64,000 bases of DNA from Patescibacteria group bacterium (GTDB lineage Bacteria; Patescibacteriota; Minisyncoccia; Phycocordibacterales; UBA2100): contig JBBTSD010000001.1 in assembly GCA_038064835.1 (NCBI GenBank), forward strand, positions 100,406-164,405. The letters run 5' to 3'. The position numbers and the translations under genes are program-made. Below the pieces are notes generated by a model. The model was given only the letters and a program-made list of their open reading frames with translations. It was not told the DNA's origin and did not search any database. Shown one piece after another: positions 1 to 59,607 of the stretch (position 1 is its first letter; the number at the start of each line of letters is the position of its first letter).

Positions 1-1440
1 CCCGTTTGTCGCTGTGTGAAACAGCTCCTCGTGTGTATCGAGATCGATTGCGTAGAGTCGTTTATCTAGTGATGCTATAAATACGGTGTCATCTTTTACA
101 AATGGCGAGGAATAGAGTGCCTCTGTTGCTTGAAATGCAAACATGGGCTTTCCGGTATCCACATCAAGCGCATATAGTTTTGAATCCATGGAAGCAGCGA
201 AAACCAGGTTACGCTTTTCGTCGTACGCAGGAGCCATCTTTATATCGCCTCCCGTTTGAAACTTCCAAAGAAGTGTTCCGGATGTTGCTTGGTACGCGGA
301 AAGAGTTCCATTGTTTCCGCCTATAAATACGATTTCTTTTTTTTCCACATACAGTGGGGAAGCGTGTGTCAGATGTGTGCTTCGGGCGGTCCATATGGTT
401 TTCCCGGAATGTATATCAATTGCCGAGATACCTCCACGCCTTCTGAGAAGGCCGAATTCCAGACCGATAAAAATGAAACCAAGGGACTTTGCCAGCGCGG
501 GTGATGAGCCAATCCAATCCGCATCACGATTTATCCAACGGCGGTTACCGTTTGTGGTGTCCAATGCATAGACATTACCGTCATAAGCACCAAAAAAAAC
601 AGTATGGCCGCTGATAAGGGGACTTGATAGTATTCCTTTTCCGGGTGCGTGTGCACCAATGGTATATTCCCAAGCCACAGTGCCTGTTGCTTGGTTGAGT
701 GCACGAAAGACACCGGCATCGTTTCCGTAAAAAAGCCGGTGAGTATCAAGTGCGGGTGTCGACTTATGCACAACTAAGTCAAAGCTAGGAGATTCTGGTG
801 GAGTATAGTGCCACAAAAAATCGAATTGATTGGGTGTCGGACCAGAAGTTTTGCTCAGCGACACACCAAAATCTTTAAGTGAAAAAAATGATTCGAGAGT
901 GATTCCTTGGGCCGCAAAAGGATACGCATTCAAATCTCGAAACGCAAGTATTACTTGAATGGCCGCAATGCGTTTGTGTGCCCTTTGCAATACTATAATC
1001 TCGCGAGCAAGCGTACTACCACTATTTATAAGATCATCGATGAGAATAATAGGGTACTCGTTCAGGGTTCCTTCAATGGTCTTCATGAGGTCATAGCGTT
1101 TGCGAGATTTCCTCAAGTAGAATCCGTTCACTGGTGTGCCGCGTGCAACACTCTTCATAACAATCGCTGTGATAAGTGGAATGCTGGCAGTTTCGAGGCC
1201 ACCGACTTGGAAAGGGAGGTGTCCTTGATATCGTTCCCAAAAGAGTTCGGCGAAACAGTCAAGCCATTCGGGCTGAAGCATGAGTGCTCGGAAATCAAAC
1301 ATCCAGCTTGCACTGCTCCCTACAACACCGTTTTTTGCGATGCGGGCACCGTCTTGTCTCGTGACAAAGGCGTGTTTTAAAATCGCTTGCCTGAAGGCAA
1401 CGAGACGAGTCTCGTTGCCTGGTACAGATTTATTATTCAT
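1..1440 (-). CDS. ComF-like phosphoribosyltransferase domain (N-terminal) fused to a PQQ-like beta-propeller repeat domain; C-terminus runs off the window start (partial)
   Basis: Manual minus-strand translation gives one continuous frame from ATG at 1440: MNNKSVPGNETRLVAF...EYPIILIDDLINSGSTLAREI (PRT-type nucleotide-binding motif, ComF-like), continuing without a stop into repeated ...YGNDAGVFRALNQATGTVAW / FGAYDGNVYALDTTNGNRRW / SKLYALDVDTGKPMF... blades. It is absent from the ORF track because there is no in-window stop. The ATG overlaps the upstream gene's stop (ATGAATAATAA). Confidence 0.55.
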   Translation of the reverse strand, partial: MNNKSVPGNETRLVAFRQAILKHAFVTRQDGARIAKNGVVGSSASWMFDFRALMLQPEWLDCFAELFWERYQGHLPFQVGGLETASIPLITAIVMKSVARGTPVNGFYLRKSRKRYDLMKTIEGTLNEYPIILIDDLINSGSTLAREIIVLQRAHKRIAAIQVILAFRDLNAYPFAAQGITLESFFSLKDFGVSLSKTSGPTPNQFDFLWHYTPPESPSFDLVVHKSTPALDTHRLFYGNDAGVFRALNQATGTVAWEYTIGAHAPGKGILSSPLISGHTVFFGAYDGNVYALDTTNGNRRWINRDADWIGSSPALAKSLGFIFIGLEFGLLRRRGGISAIDIHSGKTIWTARSTHLTHASPLYVEKKEIVFIGGNNGTLSAYQATSGTLLWKFQTGGDIKMAPAYDEKRNLVFAASMDSKLYALDVDTGKPMFAFQATEALYSSPFVKDDTVFIASLDKRLYAIDLDTHEELFHTATNG

Positions 1441-2182
1441 AAAGAGGTGGTGTGTCTTCTGATTTAGGTGATGTGCAGAGGAGGACTCCATAGACAGGTT
1501 GCTCGATACGCGGATCGAGTCCTAAAAGACGGATAACATAGGTGTCATCAAAACCACCCACTGGGCGTGTCATAATCCCCAGTGCGGTTCCTACAAGGGT
1601 AATATTTTGTGCCATGTGCCCCGTCTCAAGAAGGCCTAGAAGATAGGCAAAGTCTCCGTACCGTGCACTCGAACGGTCCCACACCGCTGTGAAAATAAGG
1701 ATGGTAGATGAAAGTGGCGTCATTCCGGTTCGGATTATGCGACGCATTTCAAAATCGTCTGGGAGATCCCAGAGATGTTCCAATGCGTGGTCGCGTGGGT
1801 GGTAGTGAAACACACCAGGTACTTTACCTTCGCGTACGAGACCGAGTATATATGTCTCGATAGGGTAGAGGGCGCCACCAGAGGGATAGGTGCGCGTTGG
1901 TTTTCTGTTTGTTTTTACACCAACCGCATGACCGAAAAGTGTACCGAGTTCTGTGTCAGTGAACGCGCGCGGAATAAGACATTCTCCGGCAGACATACGC
2001 GCGGCCAACACTTCGTCGAGGCGGGTAGTAAGTGGTACGGGATGAGGTAGTGCGATACGAGGCATGCGTGGATATTCCTTATGTTCCCCAGGTAATGCAC
2101 TATCAGAAGATTTGGTCAGTCCAGTGCGTAGAATCCGTGCTTTCCGGATTGATTGATGCACCTGTTGGATAAAACGAGTCAT
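1433..2182 (-). CDS. SagB-type (McbC-like) nitroreductase-fold dehydrogenase
   Basis: The 249-aa ORF carries a PSGGALYPIETY motif characteristic of SagB/ThcOx dehydrogenases. It overlaps the YcaO gene by 4 nt and the downstream gene by 8 nt, consistent with translational coupling. Confidence 0.65.
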   Translation of the reverse strand: MTRFIQQVHQSIRKARILRTGLTKSSDSALPGEHKEYPRMPRIALPHPVPLTTRLDEVLAARMSAGECLIPRAFTDTELGTLFGHAVGVKTNRKPTRTYPSGGALYPIETYILGLVREGKVPGVFHYHPRDHALEHLWDLPDDFEMRRIIRTGMTPLSSTILIFTAVWDRSSARYGDFAYLLGLLETGHMAQNITLVGTALGIMTRPVGGFDDTYVIRLLGLDPRIEQPVYGVLLCTSPKSEDTPPLYE

Positions 2183-3645
2183 GCAAAGGGATGGGGTTCG
2201 TTTGTATAGGGCTCACTTCGCACTCTAAAGCCGAGTCGTTTCGGAACATCGTGTATGCGAGCTCCTCCGATAGGAGGTGTTGCTTCAGTGTAGTGAATAG
2301 GGATTAGCTCAGGAATCACCACCATTTCAATGTGCCAGGGTGTATGGTTTGCTCGGGCTTGAGTAAATGAAACTGACGCGCACTCGTACCCTTGCTCGCT
2401 GCACCAGTGGATAATACGGTCGAGATGCTGTTGCGGTGAATCGCTATCCCATATTTCTGGGCGAAGTGGTTGCTCTTTTCCTGACAAAAGAAATTGCAGG
2501 TGTTTGTGGCGGTCTGCCTGTGCCCAATAGACGAGACGATTACGCTGTCCTGTGTGTCGCACTGTGGCTATGGGGCGACCTTTCCTCTCGTATTTTCTTA
2601 TCTGAGCACGAGCCCCCCTCCTCGCTCGAAGAGCCTCGATAAGTGCCCGCTCAGCGGCGAGTGCGGGGTCACAATCCGACTTGAGGCCAAGGCCAAGTTT
2701 AGGGGCATGGGGCGTAAGGTCTTCCAAAAATGCACCAATGGAATATGTTGGCGCATCACTAACAAGGCGGATGAAATGAGGTTGTAGGCGGTATTGCTCG
2801 CAGAGTGCAACCAATGTAGCTAACGAAGGTCGGCGCTGAACAAGTTCGTGTGTAGGTATGCGCGGAGGTGTAATTTGGTTAAGCCAGGTAAGCATGTATG
2901 CGTCGCGTTCGATGACTTCCAGTGCACCCGAAAGAAGAGCGCATGACTTTTCAGGGTGTGTTGCAAGACCGGTGGTGATAGATGGCCGAATAATAGGCTC
3001 GCGCTGTTCGCCTATCCCACGGACAGCCAGGTTCATGCCGTATCGACTAATTGTTTGCGCAGGCAACCACACCATTTTTTTTGTAATAAGAGATGTTGCG
3101 CGTGTCCATAGAAATAGTGAATCGGATTGGATATGAAATCGTGGATCTTTTTTTCGCTGCTGAGGATTGAAGCTGGCAAAGCGGTCTGGTGTGAGTGCCG
3201 TGCCCTTCCTCTGGATTTCCGATACTGTTGCTCGGGTGGGGGAAACAAGCATGTCGCTCTGTGTAAACCAAATATAGCGTTCAGTTGCCTCCGCTAGTGC
3301 GCGACTAAATGCTGACCGTTCATCAGTTATGTCTCCACCTGCGGCGCGTACTGTGGCACCACCCTGGATATATTCCATGTACCAAAGAGCAAAAGGAGGT
3401 TCGTCCGGAGAATAGGGTGCCGGATAGTACAGTTTGGCAACTCCTGATGCAAACATTTTTTCGGCAATGGAAAAAAGGTCGAGCATGTCGGGACGACCAA
3501 AGGGTACCTCGCTGTCATCTTGGACAAGGTGCGCTCCGAACTGGCGTTCAAGAAATCGTAAGAAATTGATTCGTGCATGTTCAGTACGGTCGCCTCTATA
3601 AAGGCCACGCCAGACAGTCTCAAGGGAGTGGGCACTATGTATCAT
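2179..3645 (-). CDS. ycaO: YcaO-domain protein (ATP-dependent cyclodehydratase / amide-activating family)
   Basis: 488-aa protein with TGLATHPEKSCALLSGALEVIERDA (YcaO ATP-binding signature) and a C-terminal ...YTNEPHPFA proline-rich YcaO tail. Confidence 0.75.
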   Translation of the reverse strand: MIHSAHSLETVWRGLYRGDRTEHARINFLRFLERQFGAHLVQDDSEVPFGRPDMLDLFSIAEKMFASGVAKLYYPAPYSPDEPPFALWYMEYIQGGATVRAAGGDITDERSAFSRALAEATERYIWFTQSDMLVSPTRATVSEIQRKGTALTPDRFASFNPQQRKKDPRFHIQSDSLFLWTRATSLITKKMVWLPAQTISRYGMNLAVRGIGEQREPIIRPSITTGLATHPEKSCALLSGALEVIERDAYMLTWLNQITPPRIPTHELVQRRPSLATLVALCEQYRLQPHFIRLVSDAPTYSIGAFLEDLTPHAPKLGLGLKSDCDPALAAERALIEALRARRGARAQIRKYERKGRPIATVRHTGQRNRLVYWAQADRHKHLQFLLSGKEQPLRPEIWDSDSPQQHLDRIIHWCSEQGYECASVSFTQARANHTPWHIEMVVIPELIPIHYTEATPPIGGARIHDVPKRLGFRVRSEPYTNEPHPFA

Positions 3646-3728
3646 GGTGTCATGATACCGTGATGGGTCTACAGTGAGAAGATTGTCCTAAGGATGAATA
3701 TGTTTCGCTACATATCCACAGTTCTCGT

Positions 3729-4187
3729 GTGGTTTTGCACATAGGAAAGATATCTAAGGGAGCATCATGCTATCATGAACATGTGGCTTTCAGTGATATA
3801 CAAAAAAGAGCAGTCGGATTTTTAAGTGCCTGCGGAGCGATTCTCCTCTTGGTCGTCGGTTTCCTTGTTATTTTCATGACGCCAGCAGGAGGTTCGCGTG
3901 GCGGGAAAACATGGAAAGCACTTTCTCCACTCGACGCACTTGGACCGAGTACCGCCCTTGCAGACGCTCCTGCAGACTCAGATTCTGCCGCAGACTCCGC
4001 TGCGGATTCCGCTGCGGATTCGGGCACAGACTCCGGTACAGACTCCGGTACAGACTCTGGCACAGACTCCGGTACAGATGCTGACTCAGGTGCCGACGCT
4101 GGTGCCGACGCTGGTGCCGATGCGGGTGCCGATTGTGCATGTGACGCTGGTGCCGATGCGGGTGCCGATGCGGGTGGTTGCGAGTAG
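3729..4187 (+). CDS. Low-complexity D/S/T/G/A/C-rich repetitive protein; either a secreted acidic repeat protein or a candidate azol(in)e RiPP precursor
   Basis: ORF (GTG 3729; alternative ATG 3876) encodes a hydrophobic N-terminal segment (KRAVGFLSACGAILLLVVGFLVIF) followed by ADSAADSAADSGTDSGTDSGTDSGTDSGTDADSGADAGADAGADAGADCACDAGADAGADAGGCE. The DNA beneath is 12/15-nt tandem repeats. The gene is divergent from the YcaO operon. Confidence 0.4.
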   Translation: MVLHIGKISKGASCYHEHVAFSDIQKRAVGFLSACGAILLLVVGFLVIFMTPAGGSRGGKTWKALSPLDALGPSTALADAPADSDSAADSAADSAADSGTDSGTDSGTDSGTDSGTDADSGADAGADAGADAGADCACDAGADAGADAGGCE

Positions 4188-5326
4188 GTCCCACTTTAGC
4201 TAGCCAAACTTATCGTATGCAAAAAGACACAATTATTGGCGCAGGGGCAGGAGTTGCAATACTCGTTGGAATTGTTGCGTACGGATGGTATGTCTATGGC
4301 CGAGATGTCCCCGCTGAGAAAAAGCCTTTAAGATACACACATGAAAGGCCGCCAAATGTTGTCCTTGCGAAGGACAACAAGGCTTTTGCTGTTGCTGATA
4401 ATTATTTCAAAAATGGTCGTTTTACTGCCGCGCTCGAGAAATACAACGAAGCTATTCTCAAGGCGCGTAATCCAATTGAAGAGAATCAGATTTTGTACAG
4501 AATTGCATTAACAACAGAGAGACGGGGAAACGCGAAAGAGGCGATCCCCCTCTACAAAGAACTTATCGCAAACCCAGAAGCAATATCTTTCATCAAAGCA
4601 TACTCCGCTCAAGAGCTCGCGCTGATGCTTGTGAGTCCTGAAACTATCCATTTAGCTCCGGATATTTTTTCAGGAGACCCTTATGCCAGTTTTAATACAG
4701 AGGGTAACCGCGCGCTCTCTAATCGAAAGATGTTCGAGTACGCCTCCTCCTTTTACCCACTGGCACTTTCCGAGCTCCGTGTAGCCGATTGGTATGCCGA
4801 ACAGCTTTTAAAACCCGCGGTGCGCAAACCAGTCAGTGCTTCGCATGAATATGTTGGTATTATCGAAGATCGCATGAAAAACGCGGACGCAGACATTACC
4901 CGTACATTTGATAGTCCAAGCGAGAGCGGGTTCCTTGATGAAATATTGACACGCAAAGCTGTAGTGATTGGGAAACTCGCAATAGTCAAAATTGTTTCCC
5001 ACGAGGAGGCCGAGCGGGCTTTTGCAGATGCCTTTAATCTTATCGCAGTTCGTTCCCCAGGGACATCTGCCGACCGATGGATGAGATACTATCATGCAAG
5101 ATACTTGCTGAATGTTCCAAGTAGCGAAACCAGGGTTCGAGACATCATTGCGCCTTTTTACGAGACAAATATATACAAGGATGGAGAGATGAAGACTTTC
5201 TTCAAAAACGAAAGGACCAACAAGCAGGGGCAGAAAGTGTACTTACAAAAAATGGCAACGATAGACTCGGATTTCAAGAAATACTTGCTGGGGTTGGGGT
5301 GGCAACCATCAGACTTCCCAAAGTGA
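4178..5326 (+). CDS. Hypothetical membrane-anchored protein (TTG 4178 or ATG 4217)
   Basis: 382-aa ORF with an N-terminal TM helix (IIGAGAGVAILVGIVAYGWYVY) and helical-repeat-like sequence. No recognisable catalytic motif. Confidence 0.4.
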   Translation: MRVGPTLASQTYRMQKDTIIGAGAGVAILVGIVAYGWYVYGRDVPAEKKPLRYTHERPPNVVLAKDNKAFAVADNYFKNGRFTAALEKYNEAILKARNPIEENQILYRIALTTERRGNAKEAIPLYKELIANPEAISFIKAYSAQELALMLVSPETIHLAPDIFSGDPYASFNTEGNRALSNRKMFEYASSFYPLALSELRVADWYAEQLLKPAVRKPVSASHEYVGIIEDRMKNADADITRTFDSPSESGFLDEILTRKAVVIGKLAIVKIVSHEEAERAFADAFNLIAVRSPGTSADRWMRYYHARYLLNVPSSETRVRDIIAPFYETNIYKDGEMKTFFKNERTNKQGQKVYLQKMATIDSDFKKYLLGLGWQPSDFPK

Positions 5327-5330
5327 GCGT

Positions 5331-6038
5331 ATGGTAGATGAATCCAATATTGTTCAGCGTACAGCGCTCGGCCTGATTCTCATTGCGGGAGTGGTAATTC
5401 TTGTTGGAGCATCCACATCTTCCCGTTATGCTGGGCAGGCCCGAGAAAAAAGTCAAGAAGATTTACAGCTGGCTACACGCGTTATTACCGAGCAGGATCA
5501 TGTGCAAGGATCGCGCGATGCGCCTCTCGAAATAGTCGAGTATTCCGATTTCGAATGTCCCTATTGTCGGGCGCTTCATCTGGGCATAATTCCTAGACTC
5601 AAAGAGAGGTATGGAGAGACCATGGTTCTGGCGTACCGGCATTTTCCTCTTCCGCGTTATCCGCATAGTGTGCGCGAGGCAGAAGCAGCCGAATGTGCCG
5701 CGAGTGTCGGGGGTGAGGACGCATTTTGGAAGTATACCGAAGCACTTTTTATGGAGAAACCACGCGAGGCAACATTGACTGACGAAAACCTCATTGTGTT
5801 GGCGACCTCGATGGGGATTCCAGGTGAAGCATTTGAAATATGCATGGCATCGGGCGAAGCTTTCGCTCGAGTGCAGAGCGACAAAGCGGGTGGGGTGGTT
5901 GCTGGCATTGCCATGACACCCACACTTCTCATCACCTATGGTGGTGCAAAAGTAAAAGTGCAGGGAAGTTATCAAGACCGAATCTTAGAAGCTATAGATG
6001 AACTTCTAACGGTGTCCGAGAAGCCTCCAGAGCAATAA
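5331..6038 (+). CDS. DsbA-family thiol:disulfide oxidoreductase (thioredoxin fold), membrane-anchored
   Basis: N-terminal TM helix, then a CPYC active-site motif (SDFECPYCRALH) in a DsbA-like context. Confidence 0.65.
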   Translation: MVDESNIVQRTALGLILIAGVVILVGASTSSRYAGQAREKSQEDLQLATRVITEQDHVQGSRDAPLEIVEYSDFECPYCRALHLGIIPRLKERYGETMVLAYRHFPLPRYPHSVREAEAAECAASVGGEDAFWKYTEALFMEKPREATLTDENLIVLATSMGIPGEAFEICMASGEAFARVQSDKAGGVVAGIAMTPTLLITYGGAKVKVQGSYQDRILEAIDELLTVSEKPPEQ

Positions 6039-6041
6039 AGT

Positions 6042-6482
6042 ATGAAAGATATACAAACATATACAGTTATATCCTTGGCGACTGCGGTGGTATTGATTGC
6101 ACTCATATACCTTACCCCCCTAAAACACATCAACCTTATCGAACCTACGATTGACGATATCAATCCCCAAGAGTTCCATGCTATGTTTGTGGCAAATCCA
6201 GACAACTACATTTTCATCGATGTTCGTCCTGAAAATGCCTACACTGCCGCACATGCGCTTGGCTCGGAAAGCATGCCACTGCATACACTCTTTGATACGA
6301 GGCATCTCCTCCCAAAGACCGGAAAGACCATAGTCCTGATTTGTAGTGGGGGGCGTGCCTCGGGGGTTGGCTATAGCTATCTTGAACATTATGGCTTCTT
6401 TAATATCAAGCGAATCGATGGTGGTATTGAACGATGGATAAGTATGGGATTACCCGTTGACGGAAAGCAAGTCATTAAGTGA
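6042..6482 (+). CDS. Rhodanese-domain sulfurtransferase, membrane-anchored
   Basis: 146 aa with an N-terminal TM helix and a rhodanese active-site loop LICSGGRASG with the catalytic Cys. Confidence 0.65.
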   Translation: MKDIQTYTVISLATAVVLIALIYLTPLKHINLIEPTIDDINPQEFHAMFVANPDNYIFIDVRPENAYTAAHALGSESMPLHTLFDTRHLLPKTGKTIVLICSGGRASGVGYSYLEHYGFFNIKRIDGGIERWISMGLPVDGKQVIK

Positions 6483-6503: not shown

Positions 6504-7289
6504 ATGTGGGCAAAACGCACCCTAGTTGTTGGAATTCTTTTACTGCTCGGTCTGGTAGTGGGTAGGGTCCACGGCGCTCGTATTGCGTGGGATTGTTGCG
6601 GCATAACATCGTTCGCTCAGGTGCTTGCGCCACATGATGCAGAGTTACACTTCAATATCGGGGATTATTTTTTCGGGAATGGTGCATATGATCCAGAGTG
6701 GGCCTACAAACACTTTATTTTTGCCCGGAATGCTAATCCTGCACTTGCCCGTGTGAACTACCAACTCGCGCGTCTCTCCTTTCTAAATGGAAATTTCTCA
6801 GATGCATATGCGTCCGTACTCAGAGAAAAGACAATTGACCCGTCTTTTGGAAAATCTCACTACATGGAAGGATTGATTCTTGGATACCGGGCATATCCAG
6901 GAGATTTTGAAAAATCAGTCAAAGCATTTAAGAATTTTATCGCTTACGATCCACTTAATTGGGCAGGGTATAATGATCTTTCGTGGATATACTTTCAAAA
7001 AGGTGATTATAAGAATGCATGGGATGTGGCAAATCAAGGTCTTACACAAGCATACGGAAATCCATGGCTTTTAAACTCGCGAGGGATTGCCTCACTCGCA
7101 ATGAATAAATCACATGATGCCGAGCAAGATTTTAACGATGCGCTTGACACTATCGCTACCATGACTGCAGACCAGTGGGGAGTTGCGTATCCCGGGAATA
7201 ACCCTTCTCTGTATGCGGCGGGCTTCGCCTCTATGAAAGACTCAATCGAAAGGAATTTGGGTCGAGCGATGGTTAGGACTCGTCCCTAA
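6504..7289 (+). CDS. Secreted TPR-like repeat protein
   Basis: Signal peptide (MWAKRTLVVGILLLLGLVVGRVHGA) followed by W/Y-rich helical repeats (AYDPLNWAGYNDLSWIYFQKGDYKNAWDVANQG). Confidence 0.4.
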   Translation: MWAKRTLVVGILLLLGLVVGRVHGARIAWDCCGITSFAQVLAPHDAELHFNIGDYFFGNGAYDPEWAYKHFIFARNANPALARVNYQLARLSFLNGNFSDAYASVLREKTIDPSFGKSHYMEGLILGYRAYPGDFEKSVKAFKNFIAYDPLNWAGYNDLSWIYFQKGDYKNAWDVANQGLTQAYGNPWLLNSRGIASLAMNKSHDAEQDFNDALDTIATMTADQWGVAYPGNNPSLYAAGFASMKDSIERNLGRAMVRTRP

Positions 7290-7338: not shown

Positions 7339-8148
7339 GTGATGTCTGCAATGAGCTTGGAAGTCTCCTCAAAAAAAGTAGTGTTTGCTGTAGGAATTGC
7401 CCTCGGTCTTATTGTTTTTTTCGGGGCTTTCCCCGGAATGCAGCAGAAAGTAGTTTCAGCATCTCCGTCGAGTGAGATGTACTTCTACAGCCTTTCGCCT
7501 TTGGGTGATGAGGGGGGTAGGAGTGTTCCTGCATCGTGCCCTTCCAATCTTCATGACGACGCGCTCTACGGTCGCCCATGCCAAGCAACAAACGCGTGTG
7601 GCTCTTCAGCTAACGGCGTCTATCAATGCGGAGGAATTTGCAGCGTTCCTCCACCGGGGCTTCCTGCAGGGTATGGCACGACTTGCCAGTCATCACCGAA
7701 TATTTGTGGCATGTTTGCCTACGGAGCAATTAGTTGCACCGGCTCTTGTTCGGCACCGACAGTACCAAATAGTCTCTGCGCCACATGTCCAAATGGTGTC
7801 TGTGATGCGGGCGAGTCAGGAACACTGTGCCCTCAAGACTGCGGCGGCGGGAATGGTGCGCCAATCGTCTGTACCATTTCAACAAACCCACATCGAGTGT
7901 TGCAGGGGCTTCGTACGCTTGTCACCTGGAGTGCTCCGGGTGCCACCACCTGTACTATTACAGGAACCAAACTGCTAGGAGGTGCTCAGGTAGAGCAATT
8001 CACCGCTGGTGCGTCAGGAAACCAGTCAAGCGCTGTGATTACCGAGGACACCGTCTACAAGCTCGTGTGCAGCAACGAGACGAGCAGTTGCGTCTCCCCG
8101 AACTCTCTTGTCGATAGTATCTACAACCCAGACTGGGAAGAGCTCTAA
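7339..8148 (+). CDS. Cys-rich secreted or membrane-anchored protein
   Basis: 269 aa with an N-terminal TM/signal segment and about 24 Cys in CxxC/CG-rich modules. It sits 1.3 kb downstream of the DsbA gene. Confidence 0.4.
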   Translation: MMSAMSLEVSSKKVVFAVGIALGLIVFFGAFPGMQQKVVSASPSSEMYFYSLSPLGDEGGRSVPASCPSNLHDDALYGRPCQATNACGSSANGVYQCGGICSVPPPGLPAGYGTTCQSSPNICGMFAYGAISCTGSCSAPTVPNSLCATCPNGVCDAGESGTLCPQDCGGGNGAPIVCTISTNPHRVLQGLRTLVTWSAPGATTCTITGTKLLGGAQVEQFTAGASGNQSSAVITEDTVYKLVCSNETSSCVSPNSLVDSIYNPDWEEL

Positions 8149-8207: not shown

Positions 8208-9221
8208 ATGGACAAGCAGCTCATCCATGGGGTTACCGTAAACCGACTGAGGCGGGTTTTTAACGGGTTTCCGTTCTCGATACCCGCATACTATGTATCC
8301 GTGGCGGCAAGGAATTTAGGTGCACGAAAGGAGCGGTGGGCGAGAGAACGAGTGGAGGGAAAGAAGTATCCAGAAATTTTAATATGGGACTCGCCAAATT
8401 TTGACGACCCTAGAGCAGGGCTTATTGCAAAAGTAGGTAGCTCGGGTGAACTCACAGAGCTCATTCAGAGCGAGCCGGCGAACGGCATGTTGCTGTGCGA
8501 TGGTAGGGTGCTCAGCGCTCAACATGATGCAATGCAATCCTATTCTTCCGATTTGCAGCAGTCACAAATATTTGCATCGTTTCCGGTGTGGAATGACTTG
8601 CACACTCTTCGGGAATCTCCCAAAGGTATTCTGGTCACATCTTCGGGCACCGACTCTATCACTGAAATCTCTCGAGACGGAAAACAGATTCTGTGGTTGT
8701 GGTGGGCAGGCGAACATGGGTACACAACCGATTCGTTCGGAAAGAAAAGGACTCTGGACAGACAATTAGATCATCGTCATTTCCTGTACAACACATGGCT
8801 TCGAACAACTCATGTGAATTCTGCCCAGCCACTTTCAGATGGGTCAGTACTCGCCTCCTTCTTTCATCAGGGAATCCTTGGATGTATCAACCGCGAGACT
8901 GGGACGGTGACCACAATCGTAGCTGATTTGAAACGGCCTCATGCTGCACGCATAAGCGATGGGAAGGTTTCTTTCGCTGATACAGGTAGGGGCATTGCTT
9001 ATCTCGGTACACTCAAGGGTGATAGGTTTGTGACCGAAAACTCTGTTCAGATTGAAACAAACTGGCTCCAAGACGCACAATTTGTAAACGGAATGTGGTT
9101 TTTAGCCGATGCGCAACATGCGCGGATATACTTTGCGAACAAGGGGGGAGAAGTACTCGCCTATGATCAGTTTGATCCGGAGTGGGACTTTTTTGAGGTC
9201 CTTCCATACAGAGAAGATTAA
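8208..9221 (+). CDS. Hypothetical protein
   Basis: 337-aa ORF with no motif recognised. Confidence 0.35.
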   Translation: MDKQLIHGVTVNRLRRVFNGFPFSIPAYYVSVAARNLGARKERWARERVEGKKYPEILIWDSPNFDDPRAGLIAKVGSSGELTELIQSEPANGMLLCDGRVLSAQHDAMQSYSSDLQQSQIFASFPVWNDLHTLRESPKGILVTSSGTDSITEISRDGKQILWLWWAGEHGYTTDSFGKKRTLDRQLDHRHFLYNTWLRTTHVNSAQPLSDGSVLASFFHQGILGCINRETGTVTTIVADLKRPHAARISDGKVSFADTGRGIAYLGTLKGDRFVTENSVQIETNWLQDAQFVNGMWFLADAQHARIYFANKGGEVLAYDQFDPEWDFFEVLPYRED

Positions 9222-9309: not shown

Positions 9310-10770
9310 ATGAGCATGCGGTTTTTCCAAAGAATCCTTCTAAAAAAAGGTTGGCGTACTGATTGGATCTGGACGATGCGAATACTGTACCGACAGCCTT
9401 TTAGGCGGATACCATTTTATTTCGATACAAAAGCCCTTCTAAAAAGTCAGTATTGGCCTCGCGATGTATTGGAAACAATGACCTGGGCGCGTCTACAGAG
9501 TATGGTCTTGGCTACAGAACGGATTCCATTTTGGCGTACTGTGTTCACGCGAGTCGGCCTTGACCCACAGGATTTTTCCAAAAATGACTTTATAAAACTT
9601 CCGACGATGTCTCGGACAGATTTTAACGAGCAACCAATTGAACAAATCGCGAACATGACGCATATTAAAAAAAGTTCTGCAGACCGGACATCGGGTTCAA
9701 CAGGAAGACCGTTTCGTTTCTACTTTGACCGGGGTGCTTCCCTACGCTCCTTTGCAGTAACTGAGCGCATGTTGCAGACAGTTCTTGCAGGCACTCGGGT
9801 GCCGGTCATATCATTGCGCAGTAGGCCCAAGCTCGGGTTTTCTTTTTGGCGTCATTTTCTTTTTTTTGTAAGGAGTGGTACCGGTATTAAATATCGCATG
9901 AAAGAGTTTGAAAGATTTACAAAAAGACTTGGCGAGTCCTTCCTGCTCTATAGTTTCCCTTCATTTCTCATAGAATTTGCTGAGCAGGTTGAAAAGCTTT
10001 CCTTAAAATTCCCCATCAAAGTAGTGGTGGCAAGTGGCGAAAGTATACGCCCACAAGACAAGGAACGAGTTGAGTCAATTCTAGGTGCGCGCGTATGGAA
10101 TTGCTACTCTACTAGAGAGCTTGGTTTGGTTGCGTATGAATGCGAAGGAGGGAATATGCACAGTAACGAAGAATGGCTGTATTGTGAAATTCTCGACGAT
10201 CAAGGGAAAGAAGTACCGTTTGGGGAGATTGGGCGCATAATCGCGACAACACTAGACAATCGAGTCATGCCTCTGATTCGATACGATACGGGTGATCGCG
10301 GAACAATTTCGGATAAAGCTTGTCCCTGTGGACGCACGCTTCGCACCATCTCCTTCACAGGAAGAAGTGTAGAGTACATAAAATTGGATGGCGAGCGAGC
10401 GGTGCCTCTGCTCGAGGTTGCACCTTTGTTCGATGTGTTTTGGCGAGAGGTGAAACAGTATCAAATCATCCAGAAAACCAGGTCTTCATTTGTGGTGAAG
10501 GTTGTTCCGGGGTCGTCATTCGAATCAGTACAGGGTACTATTCAGGACAATTTCGTGCGAGCGTTGCATCCAAAAGTCACGATTGAATGGGAAGTTGTTG
10601 CGGAAATCCCTCCTGCACCAAGTGGCAAGGCACTGTATTTTATTGTGGCTAGTGAGGAGCAAAATGATAGGAAGCGAAGCGGACTTTCATTTTCTCCGAG
10701 CGACGACACAACGAAGGTCCATATCTCGCAGCCTCTGCAACAAGGACCTTCGTTTCCGATGTCTTCATAG
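9310..10770 (+). CDS. Adenylate-forming enzyme, phenylacetate-CoA ligase / CapK / F390-synthetase-like (paralog 1)
   Basis: SADRTSGSTGRPF (AMP-binding P-loop-like motif), YDTGDRG and a PaaK-like C-terminal region. Confidence 0.6.
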   Translation: MSMRFFQRILLKKGWRTDWIWTMRILYRQPFRRIPFYFDTKALLKSQYWPRDVLETMTWARLQSMVLATERIPFWRTVFTRVGLDPQDFSKNDFIKLPTMSRTDFNEQPIEQIANMTHIKKSSADRTSGSTGRPFRFYFDRGASLRSFAVTERMLQTVLAGTRVPVISLRSRPKLGFSFWRHFLFFVRSGTGIKYRMKEFERFTKRLGESFLLYSFPSFLIEFAEQVEKLSLKFPIKVVVASGESIRPQDKERVESILGARVWNCYSTRELGLVAYECEGGNMHSNEEWLYCEILDDQGKEVPFGEIGRIIATTLDNRVMPLIRYDTGDRGTISDKACPCGRTLRTISFTGRSVEYIKLDGERAVPLLEVAPLFDVFWREVKQYQIIQKTRSSFVVKVVPGSSFESVQGTIQDNFVRALHPKVTIEWEVVAEIPPAPSGKALYFIVASEEQNDRKRSGLSFSPSDDTTKVHISQPLQQGPSFPMSS

Positions 10771-10772
10771 AT

Positions 10773-12083
10773 ATGGGATTTCCTGTGATGCGATATGTGA
10801 GCGAGTGTGTTGCCTTCATGCGATTTCATATCCTACATCGTCGTTCACGCAAGGTGATTGAGAAATGGCAGACAGACAGGCTACGACGGTTACTCGTTCA
10901 TGCAGAAAAAAATGTACCACTATATAAAGAATTGATGGCGACACAAAACATCCGGGCTACGGACATCAGCACGCTTGAAAACCTCTCCTTTTTGCCAGTT
11001 ATCAACAAGAAAACATTTATTGGAAGGCAGGTTGTTGAATACACTGATGGCAGTCGACACCTTTCTGGTCAATGGGTAACAACATCAGGATCGAGCGGTG
11101 TTCCTTTTACAGCACTTCGACGAACCGAAGTACAAACACTGTGGTATGGGTACTCCCTCAACTCTCGGTTCCTGACATGGGAAATGCCGTGGCGTCTGAA
11201 TGCTGACTGGGCACGAGTGGCGCATATTCGTGTGCGCCCACGGGAACGAAAGAATCATTTATGGATTCCACTAGGCGCATTTTTGAACAATCCAAGGTCT
11301 TTATTACAGCAGATTGTCGATTTCAAACCCGATGTGGTTGAAAGTTTCGCATCAGTACTATATGTGTTAGCTCGCGAGGTTGATCGTTATGGAATTGTCT
11401 GGAAGCCGCGCTATGTGGTTTCAGGCGGAGAGCAATTGTCGCCGGCAGGGCGTCTTTTTATTGAAAACACACTGGGGTGCGAAGTGTACAACCGTTATGG
11501 TCTTGAAGAATTAGGCACAGTGGGCGTTGAATGCATGCAACATGACGGACTCCACATAAACTCCGAGTCGTTGATTGTTGAGATTGTTGACGAGAGTGGC
11601 GCAAGTGTGCCCGAAACAAATCACGGAAGAGTTATCATAACCGACTTGTTCAATACCAGCATGCCTTTTGTGCGCTACGACACAGGTGATCGAGGGCATA
11701 TGTCCTGGGCGCGTTGCGCGTGCGGATTGCGTGCACCCCGGTTGTGGATTGAAGGTCGTTACTCGACTTTTCTACAATTAGGAGATCAAACTTTTCATCA
11801 TTTCTATTTCTCATACACCCTGAAGCCATTCAAGAATCAAATTCTTCAATACCAAGTAGTAAAGCGTGCTGAAAATGACCTGCTTATCCGCATTATCCCG
11901 GGGTCTGCTTTTGGGGACGAAACAACAGTGGCTATTCAAAAAGAAATTGCCAATCTGGTTAAAGAGACAGCTTCGGTTCGTGTCGAGTGTGTTGCAGAAA
12001 TAAAACGAATGCCCCGGGGGAAATCTCAGGTTATCGTTGACGAAACGGCTGGCACTCAAAAACCAGATATTCTCAAACAATAA
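10773..12083 (+). CDS. Adenylate-forming enzyme, PaaK/CapK-like (paralog 2)
   Basis: TTSGSSGVPF and YDTGDRG motifs. It starts 3 nt after paralog 1. Confidence 0.6.
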   Translation: MGFPVMRYVSECVAFMRFHILHRRSRKVIEKWQTDRLRRLLVHAEKNVPLYKELMATQNIRATDISTLENLSFLPVINKKTFIGRQVVEYTDGSRHLSGQWVTTSGSSGVPFTALRRTEVQTLWYGYSLNSRFLTWEMPWRLNADWARVAHIRVRPRERKNHLWIPLGAFLNNPRSLLQQIVDFKPDVVESFASVLYVLAREVDRYGIVWKPRYVVSGGEQLSPAGRLFIENTLGCEVYNRYGLEELGTVGVECMQHDGLHINSESLIVEIVDESGASVPETNHGRVIITDLFNTSMPFVRYDTGDRGHMSWARCACGLRAPRLWIEGRYSTFLQLGDQTFHHFYFSYTLKPFKNQILQYQVVKRAENDLLIRIIPGSAFGDETTVAIQKEIANLVKETASVRVECVAEIKRMPRGKSQVIVDETAGTQKPDILKQ

Positions 12084-53617: not shown

Positions 53618-53655
53618 ATACGCAAAAACACCCGCTGGCGCGGATGTTTTTACTT

Positions 53656-54045
53656 TGTGGAGATGGCGGGAATTGAACCCGCGTCCAAAGGAGGAGTAGC
53701 TGATCGGTGTACACAAGGTAGTTCATTTGATTTTGTTTAAACGCAGGATGTGTGAAATGAGCAAAATCATCACGCGTCGAGCTTTCTTTCTTTAGTCAGT
53801 ATCTTGAAGCATCAGACACTGACGAATCCGGCATATATGACATGTACGGCATCTTGTCGGATGAAGATGAGTACACGGCCGCTTAGGCTAATGCGTAAGC
53901 GAAGCTGAGATCTTTCACCTGAATCGGTGAAAGGAACCCCCGTGCGGTTTTATTTGCACTTAGATTTTGAACAGTTTAAAGAAGATGTTCACTTCTCTTG
54001 TGCCTTTCAAGCTCTCGAATCTCCCTGTCGAAGCCAATCATCCCC
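53656..54045 (-). ncRNA. ssrA: tmRNA (SsrA), standard one-piece form
   Basis: Minus strand 5'-GGGGAUGAUUGGCUUCGACAGGGAGAUUCG... and 3'-...GGACGCGGGUUCAAUUCCCGCCAUCUCC-A. The acceptor stem GGGGAUG/CAUCUCC has G3-U70. The T-arm is GCGGG-UUCAAUU-CCCGC. Both ends closely resemble the E. coli tmRNA ends as recalled. An internal frame ...DLSFAYALA-UAA (stop revcomp at 53883-53885) is a plausible tag. smpB lies 0.6 kb upstream on the same strand, and a terminator follows at 53625-53652. Confidence 0.7.
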
Positions 54046-59384: not shown

Positions 59385-59607
59385 GCGCCCGTAGCTCAAT
59401 GGTAGAGCGCTAAGCTTACTGTGGCTAACGAGCGTCGATTGAAAATCTGTGTGGGCGCATAGCTCAATGGTAGAGCGCCAAGCTTATACCTTGGTGGTTC
59501 TAGGTTCGAATCCTAGTGCGCCCACACAGATTTTCAATTCGCGCGAGTAACGACACAGGATTGAAAATATACCTTAGTGGTTCCAGGTTCGAGTCCTGGC
59601 GGGCGCA
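59385..59607 (+). tRNA. tRNA-Val(UAC)-like gene split by a 151-nt insertion in the anticodon loop (5' part 59385-59419; 3' part 59571-59607)
   Basis: 5' GCGCCCG-TA-GCTC-AATGGTA-GAGC-G-CTAAG-CTTAC | ... | AC-CTTAG-TGGTT-CCAGG-TTCGAGT-CCTGG-CGGGCGC-A. Acceptor, D, anticodon and T stems are all fully complementary across the insertion. Confidence 0.45.
59453..59524 (+). tRNA. Complete tRNA with anticodon UAU (tRNA-Ile(UAU)-like), nested inside the split tRNA
   Basis: GGGCGCA-TA-GCTC-AATGGTA-GAGC-G-CCAAG-CTTATAC-CTTGG-TGGTT-CTAGG-TTCGAAT-CCTAG-TGCGCCC-A, a canonical cloverleaf. Flanked by a 17-18-bp inverted repeat (59436-59452 / 59525-59541). Confidence 0.6.

Follow-up and report, generated by a model that had tools for sequence, protein, structure and literature searches.

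A probable YcaO-dependent azol(in)e-peptide locus with a signal-anchor-like precursor leader in Patescibacteria

A YcaO gene, a dehydrogenase gene and a divergent small gene

The 64,000-nucleotide stretch of Patescibacteria DNA analysed here (contig JBBTSD010000001.1 of assembly GCA_038064835.1, referred to below as the window) carries, at 1433-4187, a YcaO gene and a SagB-type dehydrogenase gene on the minus strand that are divergent from a repeat-rich small open reading frame (ORF) on the plus strand. The remainder of the 64-kb window encodes housekeeping functions, such as ribosomal proteins, SecY, purD, FtsH, RecG and similar. A sequence-only reading of this DNA had proposed a non-canonical locus for an azol(in)e-bearing peptide that is made by ribosomes and then modified post-translationally (RiPP), a proposal supported here by the family scores of the enzymes and by a precursor family that co-occurs with them in relatives. 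The locus is probably a linear azol(in)e-peptide (LAP) cluster, resembling those of the thiazole/oxazole-modified microcins (TOMMs), of the Patescibacteria or Candidate Phyla Radiation (CPR), and is organized around a stand-alone 'D' protein. Its central features are as follows.

1433..2182, minus strand: SagB/McbC-type azoline dehydrogenase dependent on flavin mononucleotide (FMN), 249 aa, with the motif PSGGALYP (TIGR03605, PF00881)
2179..3645, minus strand: stand-alone YcaO cyclodehydratase, 488 aa, C terminus PHPFA (PF02624, TIGR03604, AlphaFold2 (AF2) model)
3646..3782, no strand: divergent intergenic region, from the YcaO start to the precursor start (read from the sequence)
3729..4187, plus strand: repeat-rich small ORF in its longest form, from a GTG at 3729 (translation)
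3783..3962, plus strand: precursor leader, residues 1-60 from the GTG at 3783 (alignment with 29 leaders, hidden Markov model (HMM))
3963..4187, plus strand: precursor core, 74 aa and the stop codon (translation, repeats, composition)

The YcaO and dehydrogenase genes overlap by 4 nt (2179-2182, ATGA), and thus the translational coupling claimed in the sequence-only reading is plausible. Between the start of the YcaO gene and the longest start of the small ORF (3729) there is a gap of 83 nt, and the region 3646..3782 presumably holds both promoters. A promoter and terminator scan of the locus, however, returned counts no higher than the shuffled background, leaving a consensus promoter unassigned.

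The YcaO protein matched PF02624 at 1e-37 (130.6 bits, against a cutoff of 25.7), while its best NCBIfam match was TIGR03604 (TOMM_cyclo_SagD), aligned over model positions 5-377 of 377 with a score of 184.6 bits that, it should be emphasized, is below the NCBI trusted cutoff of 219.25 and counts against the assignment. Scores with the E. coli-type model TIGR00702 (34.7 bits, cutoff 75.65) and with the McrA thioamidation model TIGR03266 (49.5 bits, cutoff 365) were far below the respective cutoffs, and thus the housekeeping and thioamidation clades do not apply. When a profile of 31 CPR homologues was compared with the PDB the matches were TruD, LynD, MusD and methanogen YcaOs. The EAxERY and LEVIERD motifs, invariant in 31 relatives, align with their LynD/TruD counterparts and, by analogy with published YcaO structures, may be assigned as ATP/Mg-binding motifs. 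LynD (4v1v, E 3.6e-22) was also the top Foldseek match of the AF2 model, which has a predicted local distance difference test score (pLDDT) of 92.6, followed by MusD, thioamide-forming methanogen (archaeal) YcaOs, E. coli YcaO and McbD. These data support the grouping of the enzyme with TOMM/SagD-type cyclodehydratases, the outcome that the sequence-only reading had anticipated, although the C terminus, there described as of the PxPxP type, is in fact PHPFA and thus PxPxA. The family is large, the 31-member profile retrieving at least 150 representatives (50%-identity clusters), mostly full length, at E<1e-83 and 1398 at E<1e-30. A protein of 100% identity to the window YcaO is on record from a Patescibacteria metagenome-assembled genome with a 330-kb contig, and the closest relatives outside the CPR are haloarchaeal YcaOs, at about 25% identity.

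It could be argued that this YcaO is of the E. coli type and serves a housekeeping role, as an accessory of RimO in the modification of ribosomal protein S12 or an agent of uL16 thioamidation. Indeed JGI names its homologues 'ribosomal protein S12 methylthiotransferase accessory factor', the genes for L3/L4/L2/S3 begin about 8 kb away, and in one relative (L084) the cluster lies between the genes for EF-G and EF-Tu. The JGI name, however, is a generic COG label, the TIGR00702 score is less than half its cutoff, E. coli YcaO is a poorer structural match than LynD, and the gene comes with a coupled SagB dehydrogenase and an adjoining hypervariable peptide. Judged by the family scores, the housekeeping role is effectively refuted, and we consider it extremely unlikely.

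The partner enzyme leads in the same direction. The dehydrogenase passed the cutoff of the SagB family TIGR03605 (105.7 bits, cutoff 78.4), matched the Pfam Nitroreductase family PF00881 at 5e-12 and, in sequence comparison with the PDB, matched McbC (6gos_C, 6.5e-15) and the cyanobactin oxidase CyaGox (5lq4, 1.2e-14) with the K-Y region aligned, bearing out its earlier description, from the PSGGALYP motif, as SagB/McbC-type. Of the 49 loci that were clustered among the relatives described below, 47 have the YcaO and dehydrogenase genes side by side. This pairing bears on a further possibility, that the YcaO subjects the peptide to another backbone chemistry, such as thioamidation or amidine formation, with a rhodanese as sulfur source, and makes no azolines. 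YcaOs are known to catalyse thioamidation, the thioamide-forming methanogen enzymes are good structural matches and a rhodanese gene is situated 2.4 kb away. That rhodanese, however, carries an N-terminal membrane anchor and is limited to 8 loci, the neighbours scanned include no TfuA, the TIGR03266 score is 49.5 against the required 365, and the oxidase coupled to YcaO in 47 of 49 loci is of a SagB type that has no role in thioamidation. Thioamidation is thus a very unlikely function of this enzyme.

The YcaO has no fused E1-like domain or RiPP recognition element (RRE). In the AF2 model its first 100 or so residues belong to the YcaO domain or form a short helical extension of it; the secondary-structure elements of this N terminus run beta-alpha-alpha-beta-alpha-beta-beta-beta, and the order in an RRE is different. 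Separate partners were sought with Pfam on the cluster genes and the larger window ORFs, and with NCBIfam on the cluster genes only. Within that scope there was no E1-like/ThiF or ocin-ThiF protein, no TIGR03603 or TIGR03882 match and no PqqD-like protein, in agreement with the sequence-only reading, which had noted that an E1-like or ocin-ThiF partner was missing. No RRE partner was detected in the same scans, but RREs are hard to detect by sequence and a cryptic one may be present. The N terminus of the dehydrogenase, the product of the gene described below as TPR1 and the larger window ORFs were considered as RRE or E1-like candidates and none qualified; nor did a 340-aa ORF that follows YcaO in L084 and L033 and encodes a Cys-rich membrane protein with no family hit. 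TfuA, an ABC exporter and a RiPP-type peptidase or dedicated protease were all absent from the window ORFs scanned. SecY is present in the window.

A precursor family with a conserved leader and a hypervariable core

Eighty loci encoding YcaO relatives were retrieved and labelled L001 onward; in nearly all of them the dehydrogenase gene comes after the YcaO gene. A tblastn search with the window peptide found nothing in these relatives, and the precursor family was revealed by inspecting ORFs in the gap upstream of YcaO, where a divergent small ORF of common architecture recurs, and by an HMM of the leader. Built with the window sequence left out, this HMM was applied to the 33 closest loci, of which about 30 have at least one such peptide beside YcaO, and to 35 non-CPR loci, where nothing matched at E<0.05; thus the association of peptide and YcaO exceeds chance. 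The same model matched the window ORF from the hydrophobic helix to ALADAP with 15.9 bits. Pairs of peptide and YcaO in related genomes, proposed in the sequence-only reading as a check on its hypothesis, therefore exist in about 30 loci. The family lies beside the YcaO-dehydrogenase pair at YcaO identities from 48% down to about 28%, and has further members in more distant CPR clades (L015, L036-L038), sometimes elsewhere in the cluster. The leader alignment, used as a database query, retrieved 16 peptides of 83-119 aa, none of them annotated. Both members whose context was examined lie beside YcaO, and another has the same sequence as one of the locus peptides found next to YcaO.

The architecture common to the family begins with a basic N terminus and a hydrophobic helix some 19 aa long; a spacer that varies leads to the motif A-x-A↓D-x-P (the arrow marks the end of the leader), and a hypervariable core follows. 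In 37 leaders the n-region holds 3.5 Lys+Arg against 0.3 Asp+Glu, the hydrophobic segment has a median length of 19 residues and the unconserved spacer a median of 21 (range 14-35). Position -3 is Ala in 31, Val in 5 and Thr in 1, position -2 is mostly His and position -1 is Ala in all 37; Asp (35) or Glu (2) follows at +1, and 27 have Pro at +3. By the criteria for signal peptides the n-region, the h-region and the -3/-1 rule fit, but the site lies a median of 21 residues beyond the h-region. The cores (n=39) comprise 29% Gly, 18% Ser, 14% Cys, 13% Asp and 11% Ala, with only 0.4% Lys+Arg, and the residue that precedes a core Cys is Gly in 83 instances and Ser in 73. In terms of sequence, a conserved leader followed by a hypervariable, heterocyclisable core is the classical TOMM layout, with a composition like that of microcin B17 but uniformly anionic.

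An alternative explanation for these peptides, already raised in the sequence-only reading, is that they are exported by Sec, or anchored in the membrane, as acidic, Cys-rich metallothionein- or adhesin-like products, while the YcaO pair acts elsewhere. The DsbA-like, rhodanese and TPR proteins encoded nearby would then handle the peptide outside the cell, and its link to YcaO would be conserved synteny only. The N terminus is indeed signal-anchor-like, and this part of the earlier alternative not only stood but holds across the family. In addition A-x-A fits the -3/-1 rule, the genes for the DsbA-like protein, the rhodanese and the signal-peptide-bearing TPR2 are on the same strand, the CxC and CC patterns of many cores resemble metal-binding peptides, and the window core is Cys-poor and finds its only family matches in staphylococcal SD-repeat regions. 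In contrast, the peptide stays next to YcaO where the surrounding gene order has changed (L015, L036, L084), every database member with examined context is beside YcaO, the DsbA-like and rhodanese genes occur in only 8 loci, and a hypervariable Gly/Ser/Cys core with a conserved leader and Gly or Ser before Cys is a classical TOMM signature (PMC4603692). A Sec-type N terminus is not really a rival to a RiPP precursor, and a purely secreted peptide is an unlikely explanation of the locus.

The family is not uniform. In some genomes YcaO is present in two copies and the precursor in two or three paralogous forms (L014/L030, contig JAKFXQ010000011.1; L007; L015). L014 has three precursors, with YSQ and YYDPKxCGSC motifs, and L015 has two that end in GDELY and are 5-7 kb from YcaO. 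In L002 (about 1..612, minus strand) a precursor homologue carries a C-terminal extension of about 90 aa after poly-Gly; other members end soon after the core. A longer ORF occupies the precursor position in L043 (4746..5594, minus strand), with QVAHADTP, repeats rich in Tyr/Ser/Gln and GGSCGGSC; its end resembles a Hint/intein-type autoprocessing domain (CFTAGEVVLTEDG...VHN) and could be a self-cleaving follower. L037 (DATGZC010000063.1) has a full CPR-type cluster, comprising YcaO, dehydrogenase, the phosphoribosyltransferase/propeller protein described below, precursor and TPR2, and is binned as a Bathyarchaeia archaeon, which reflects either mis-binning or horizontal transfer. The cluster of L084 (JAGOVW010000001.1, 3580..8143) is the one flanked within the str operon by the EF-G gene on one side and the EF-Tu gene on the other, and in it the 340-aa Cys-rich membrane protein, which has no family hit, follows YcaO and the dehydrogenase is on the other side of the cluster.

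In the window itself, alignment with relatives favours the GTG at 3783 as the precursor start (MAFSDIQKR..., 134 aa) over that at 3729. From that start the leader opens with a basic n-region; next comes the hydrophobic helix VGFLSACGAILLLVVGFLVIFMT, which a spacer of 27 aa separates from the A-L-A directly before D-A-P, and comparison with the 29 leaders of relatives shows G26, A60 and D61 to be invariant or nearly so. The C-terminal part of the ORF is ADSDSAADSAADSAADSGTDSGTDSGTDSGTDSGTDADSGADAGADAGADAGADCACDAGADAGADAGGCE, and Tandem Repeats Finder reports 12-nt periodic arrays in its repeat region. The core proceeds from DAP through (AADS)n, (GTDS)5 and (GADA)n ... CACDAGADAGADAGGCE. The 71 residues that follow DAP include 3 Cys, 10 Ser, 5 Thr (C+S+T = 18/71) and 18 Asp, with no Lys or Arg. 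The precursor sequence is identical in the independent assemblies L085 and L086, and partial in L088.

This core is an outlier in the family, with its 3 Cys in 71 residues and most of its Ser after Asp, and one relative (L008) has no Cys. Thus, the window peptide may be poorly heterocyclised or not heterocyclised at all. It could be argued that the cluster is decaying or has been repurposed in this genome, the enzymes remaining intact while the core drifted by expansion of the 12-nt repeat into an Asp/Ala/Ser/Gly repeat until it ceased to be a cyclodehydratase substrate. No other member of the family has so long a core, which consists of 12-nt units in tandem and holds 18 Asp; the leader reads ALADAP in place of AHADAP and its score with the independent HMM is weak, and the dehydrogenase has Arg-Tyr (SSARYGDFAY) at the Lys-Tyr catalytic motif. 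Among the 61 homologues in which this motif was located by script, 58 have KY and 3, the window enzyme being one of them, have RY, a change that appears conservative from the residues involved. However, all the cluster ORFs are intact and identical across independent assemblies, the overlaps of the operon are kept, and five Gly-Thr and three Cys sites would still be cyclisable. Furthermore, Asp-rich, Cys-poor cores recur in other clusters that have the phosphoribosyltransferase fusion (L003, L008, L009, L012, L024), which suggests a sub-type rather than decay. We therefore regard decay as improbable.

Genes that accompany the core cluster

The ORFs of 1433-4187 are situated where the sequence-only reading had placed them, but the system is larger than that interval, extending on the left to a third operon gene and on the right to a gene (4217..5326) for a protein with similarity to tetratricopeptide repeat (TPR) proteins. 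The genes concerned, and those that follow, are listed here.

1..1440, minus strand: third operon gene, encoding a phosphoribosyltransferase (PRTase) like orotate phosphoribosyltransferase (OPRT) joined to a BamB/PQQ_2-type beta-propeller; 480 of 552 codons are in the window
4217..5326, plus strand: TPR1, 369 aa, with an N-terminal transmembrane (TM) helix, an all-alpha TPR-like solenoid and a conserved C-terminal LGW..SDF motif (AF2, synteny)
5331..6038, plus strand: membrane-anchored DsbA/thioredoxin-like oxidoreductase with a CPYC motif (PF13462 4e-20; same position in 8 loci)
6042..6482, plus strand: membrane-anchored single-domain rhodanese (PF00581 7.5e-12; present in 8 loci)
6504..7289, plus strand: TPR2, 261 aa, with an ordinary short signal peptide (...LVVGRVHG↓A) (TPR_16, TPR_2)

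With its start codon at ATG 1440-1438, the PRTase/propeller gene has an 8-nt overlap with the dehydrogenase stop. It is cut by the left window edge and was therefore missing from the ORF lists; its full length (552 aa) is found on the window's own public contig (L085 5206..6864). The protein has no signal peptide, its propeller matches PF13570 (1.2e-49) and PF13360 (1.3e-36), and its PRTase domain, with an RKSRK loop and the phosphoribosyl pyrophosphate (PRPP) loop ILIDDLINSGST, matches TIGR00336 (pyrE) at 1.4e-11, below the cutoff of that model. A homologue with 38-56% identity directly follows the dehydrogenase in 21 related loci, about half of the related clusters, and the gene is also kept in clades in which YcaO identity is only about 30%. 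Two stretches, the RKSRK...IEG loop and the PRPP loop VDDLxN(S/T)G, show no variation across 22 PRTase/propeller sequences. The presence of the gene correlates with the type of core: in 33 cores (the window, L001-L038, L081 and L084) Cys makes up 9.3% in clusters with the PRTase/propeller and 19.0% in those without, and Asp 16.0% and 8.3%, respectively (Mann-Whitney p = 0.0003 for each), in a comparison that ignores phylogeny. The window core belongs to the Asp-rich type. The fusion protein is a candidate for PRPP-dependent tailoring, or for docking, in the anionic sub-type. An ORF on the opposite strand, 'orf907' (907..1380, plus strand, 157 aa), initially appeared to be a conserved gene, with tblastn matches in about 16 loci, but was rejected as an antisense shadow of the PRTase/propeller gene; its homologues align poorly and are rich in Arg, His, Phe and Cys.

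The TPR1 gene begins 29 nt past the precursor stop, and a homologue directly follows the precursor in 34 loci, even where the remaining cluster is rearranged. Pfam finds only weak TPR matches in the protein, sequence search retrieved only 5 homologues, and Foldseek with the AF2 model (pLDDT 84) finds only generic peptide-binding TPR proteins, at E 5e-3 or worse. TPR1 is the leading candidate for the role of a scaffold or escort that binds the peptide. In 25 loci TPR2 is encoded no more than a few kb from YcaO, and some of these loci have a rearranged gene order (L038, L041). The DsbA-like and rhodanese genes, which lie between the two TPR genes in 8 related loci, are facultative neighbours.

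Further to the right, 7339..8148 (plus strand) encodes a member of a membrane-anchored Cys-rich protein family of 263-950 aa with an N-terminal 'SSEVxFxD...IVPASCPS' motif, which has no Pfam or NCBIfam match; about 12 loci have a member of this family a few kb at most from the YcaO cluster (including L005, L007-L009, L013, L014, L016, L017 and L020). The idea that AxAD is a general secretion motif was rejected, as the 'SSEVxFxD' of this family is a different motif. A 337-aa ORF at 8208..9221 has no homologue near YcaO in the relatives. It lies upstream of two adjoining genes (9310..12083, plus strand; 486 and 436 aa) with weak, sub-threshold likeness to AMP-binding (adenylate-forming) enzymes, situated between the cluster neighbours and the L3/L4/L2 ribosomal-protein genes. 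Elsewhere the window holds a tmRNA gene (53655..54045, minus strand; tag ANKTARGFLSPIQVKDLSFAYALA) and a tRNA-Ile with anticodon TAT (59453..59525, plus strand).

A possible membrane-coupled route and its significance

The identities and folds of the proteins, the order of the genes, and the conservation and co-occurrence of the parts are results of the analysis, and from them we infer a chemistry, an order of events, an export route, a cleavage site and roles for the TPR and PRTase proteins. The small ORF would encode the precursor peptide. In the cytoplasm YcaO would use ATP to cyclodehydrate core Cys, Ser or Thr to azolines, which the coupled SagB-type flavoprotein would oxidise to azoles. 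The leader would be a signal-anchor-like segment rather than a soluble leader bound by an RRE, and A-x-A↓D-x-P, the presumed leader/core junction, may be a signal-peptidase-I-type site used after Sec export, and/or a recognition element for the partner-less YcaO; the first of these could apply because the -3/-1 rule is perfectly obeyed. The modified peptide would leave by the general Sec pathway by virtue of its leader, with membrane-anchored TPR1 as substrate-holding scaffold or escort, and the PRTase/propeller may act in PRPP-dependent tailoring, or in docking, where the core is rich in Asp and poor in Cys, as it is in the window.

Taken together these steps could amount to a distinct RiPP logic that is widespread in the Patescibacteria, a proposal that we put forward tentatively and consider more doubtful than the assignment of the cluster itself. 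Its four parts share this tentative status: that the leader of an azole peptide may itself be a Sec signal-anchor; that an RRE-less YcaO may receive its substrate at the membrane, through a TPR scaffold or the short AxADxP motif; that signal peptidase and Sec may take care of leader removal and export; and that in one sub-type the PRTase/propeller may add a PRPP-derived modification to, or otherwise process, the Asp/Ser-rich anionic cores.

Several points weigh against the proposed azol(in)e-peptide route, in addition to the sub-cutoff TIGR03604 score, the phylogeny-blind core comparison, the RY motif and the outlying window core described above. The AxA site is 14-35 residues past the hydrophobic helix, much further than in ordinary signal peptides, such as that of TPR2. 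A TM leader with the core outside conflicts with cytoplasmic enzymes that depend on ATP and FMN, unless modification precedes export. In TPR1 Lys+Arg number 57 and 58 on the two flanks of the helix, and thus the positive-inside rule is uninformative on topology. Finally, every chemical step is deduced, and a product has been observed for no member of the family.

The type of cluster is not new, because Sharrar et al. 2020, mBio (PMC7298704), reported 110 YcaO clusters in 93 CPR genomes, 51 of them Parcubacteria, with an adjacent nitroreductase in 89. The CPR 'LAP' clusters of that paper, presented in one paragraph and one figure with no experiments, come from the same group of organisms and have the same core as the window cluster, in which YcaO likewise adjoins a SagB/nitroreductase-family gene and a small Ser/Cys-rich ORF. 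The example cluster shown there includes a peptidase, whereas the window cluster has none. That paragraph and figure do not describe a signal-anchor leader with A-x-A↓D-x-P, a TPR partner or a PRTase/propeller.

Among characterized systems, microcin B17 is the LAP paradigm. McbBCD likewise uses a YcaO (McbD) and an FMN dehydrogenase (McbC) on the Gly/Ser/Cys-rich core of McbA; the window dehydrogenase aligns to McbC (6gos_C, E 6.5e-15), the window YcaO model matches McbD, and in the family cores, as in McbA, Cys mostly follows Gly or Ser. In contrast to microcin B17, the window cluster lacks a McbB-like E1/RRE scaffold, a McbEF exporter and a TldD/E-type leader protease, the CPR leader is hydrophobic and signal-anchor-like, and the CPR cores are strongly anionic. 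The nearest non-CPR relatives of the YcaO belong to the haloazolisin group, uncharacterised clusters of the stand-alone/truncated-C TOMM type described by Cox, Doroghazi & Mitchell 2015 (PMC4603692), which also have no recognisable leader-binding domain and have Ser-rich cores. The haloarchaeal enzymes, however, are longer, at 560-600 aa; they have a C domain that is vestigial, and an F-like protein. The CPR enzyme consists of the YcaO domain alone, some 480 aa in length, and the haloazolisin precursors are unrelated to those of the CPR. Modification of a peptide by YcaO without an E1-like or ocin-ThiF partner has a precedent in BotC/BotCD of bottromycin biosynthesis (PMC4603692). That system differs in having a follower peptide, a single thiazoline and a macroamidine, and no SagB oxidase of the CPR type, and the similarity of BotC/BotCD to the window YcaO is no closer than the general YcaO level.

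A conceptual parallel to a membrane-anchored precursor with DsbA and TPR neighbours is offered by the TMcin RiPPs (bioRxiv 2026, PMC13252029), in which the TM helix of the precursor is in the producer membrane and a DsbA-family oxidoreductase and a membrane 'escort' protein take part. The enzymology is unrelated, as TMcins involve no YcaO and no azole. In addition, their TM helix belongs to the mature product and not to the leader; an S2P-type protease takes the leader off, and an ABC transporter carries out export. In the open-access literature searched there was no direct precedent for a signal-anchor leader with AxADxP, the TPR partner, the PRTase/propeller or Sec-type RiPP leaders, and a search of that literature for YcaO together with phosphoribosyltransferases brought up no PRPP-type tailoring step. 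The system can be described as a TOMM/LAP cluster with a stand-alone YcaO, a signal-anchor-type leader and unusual accessory genes.

The CPR/Patescibacteria are ultra-small, mostly uncultured and thought to be largely symbiotic, and to our knowledge very few natural products have been reported from them. The system described here is real and well conserved, and its precursor family, with a clear leader/core boundary, and minimal two-enzyme core make it a tractable one. It raises the question of how a stand-alone 'D' protein recognizes its substrate without an RRE, flagged as an open point for such YcaOs by Cox et al. 2015 (PMC4603692), and, equally, whether heterocyclised peptides can exit through Sec and what purpose strongly anionic azole peptides may serve, be it antagonism, host interaction or metal binding. 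The interest of the system would be greater if the membrane- and Sec-coupled logic or a PRPP-dependent modification proves to be true; the PRTase/beta-propeller fusion could be a new tailoring enzyme.

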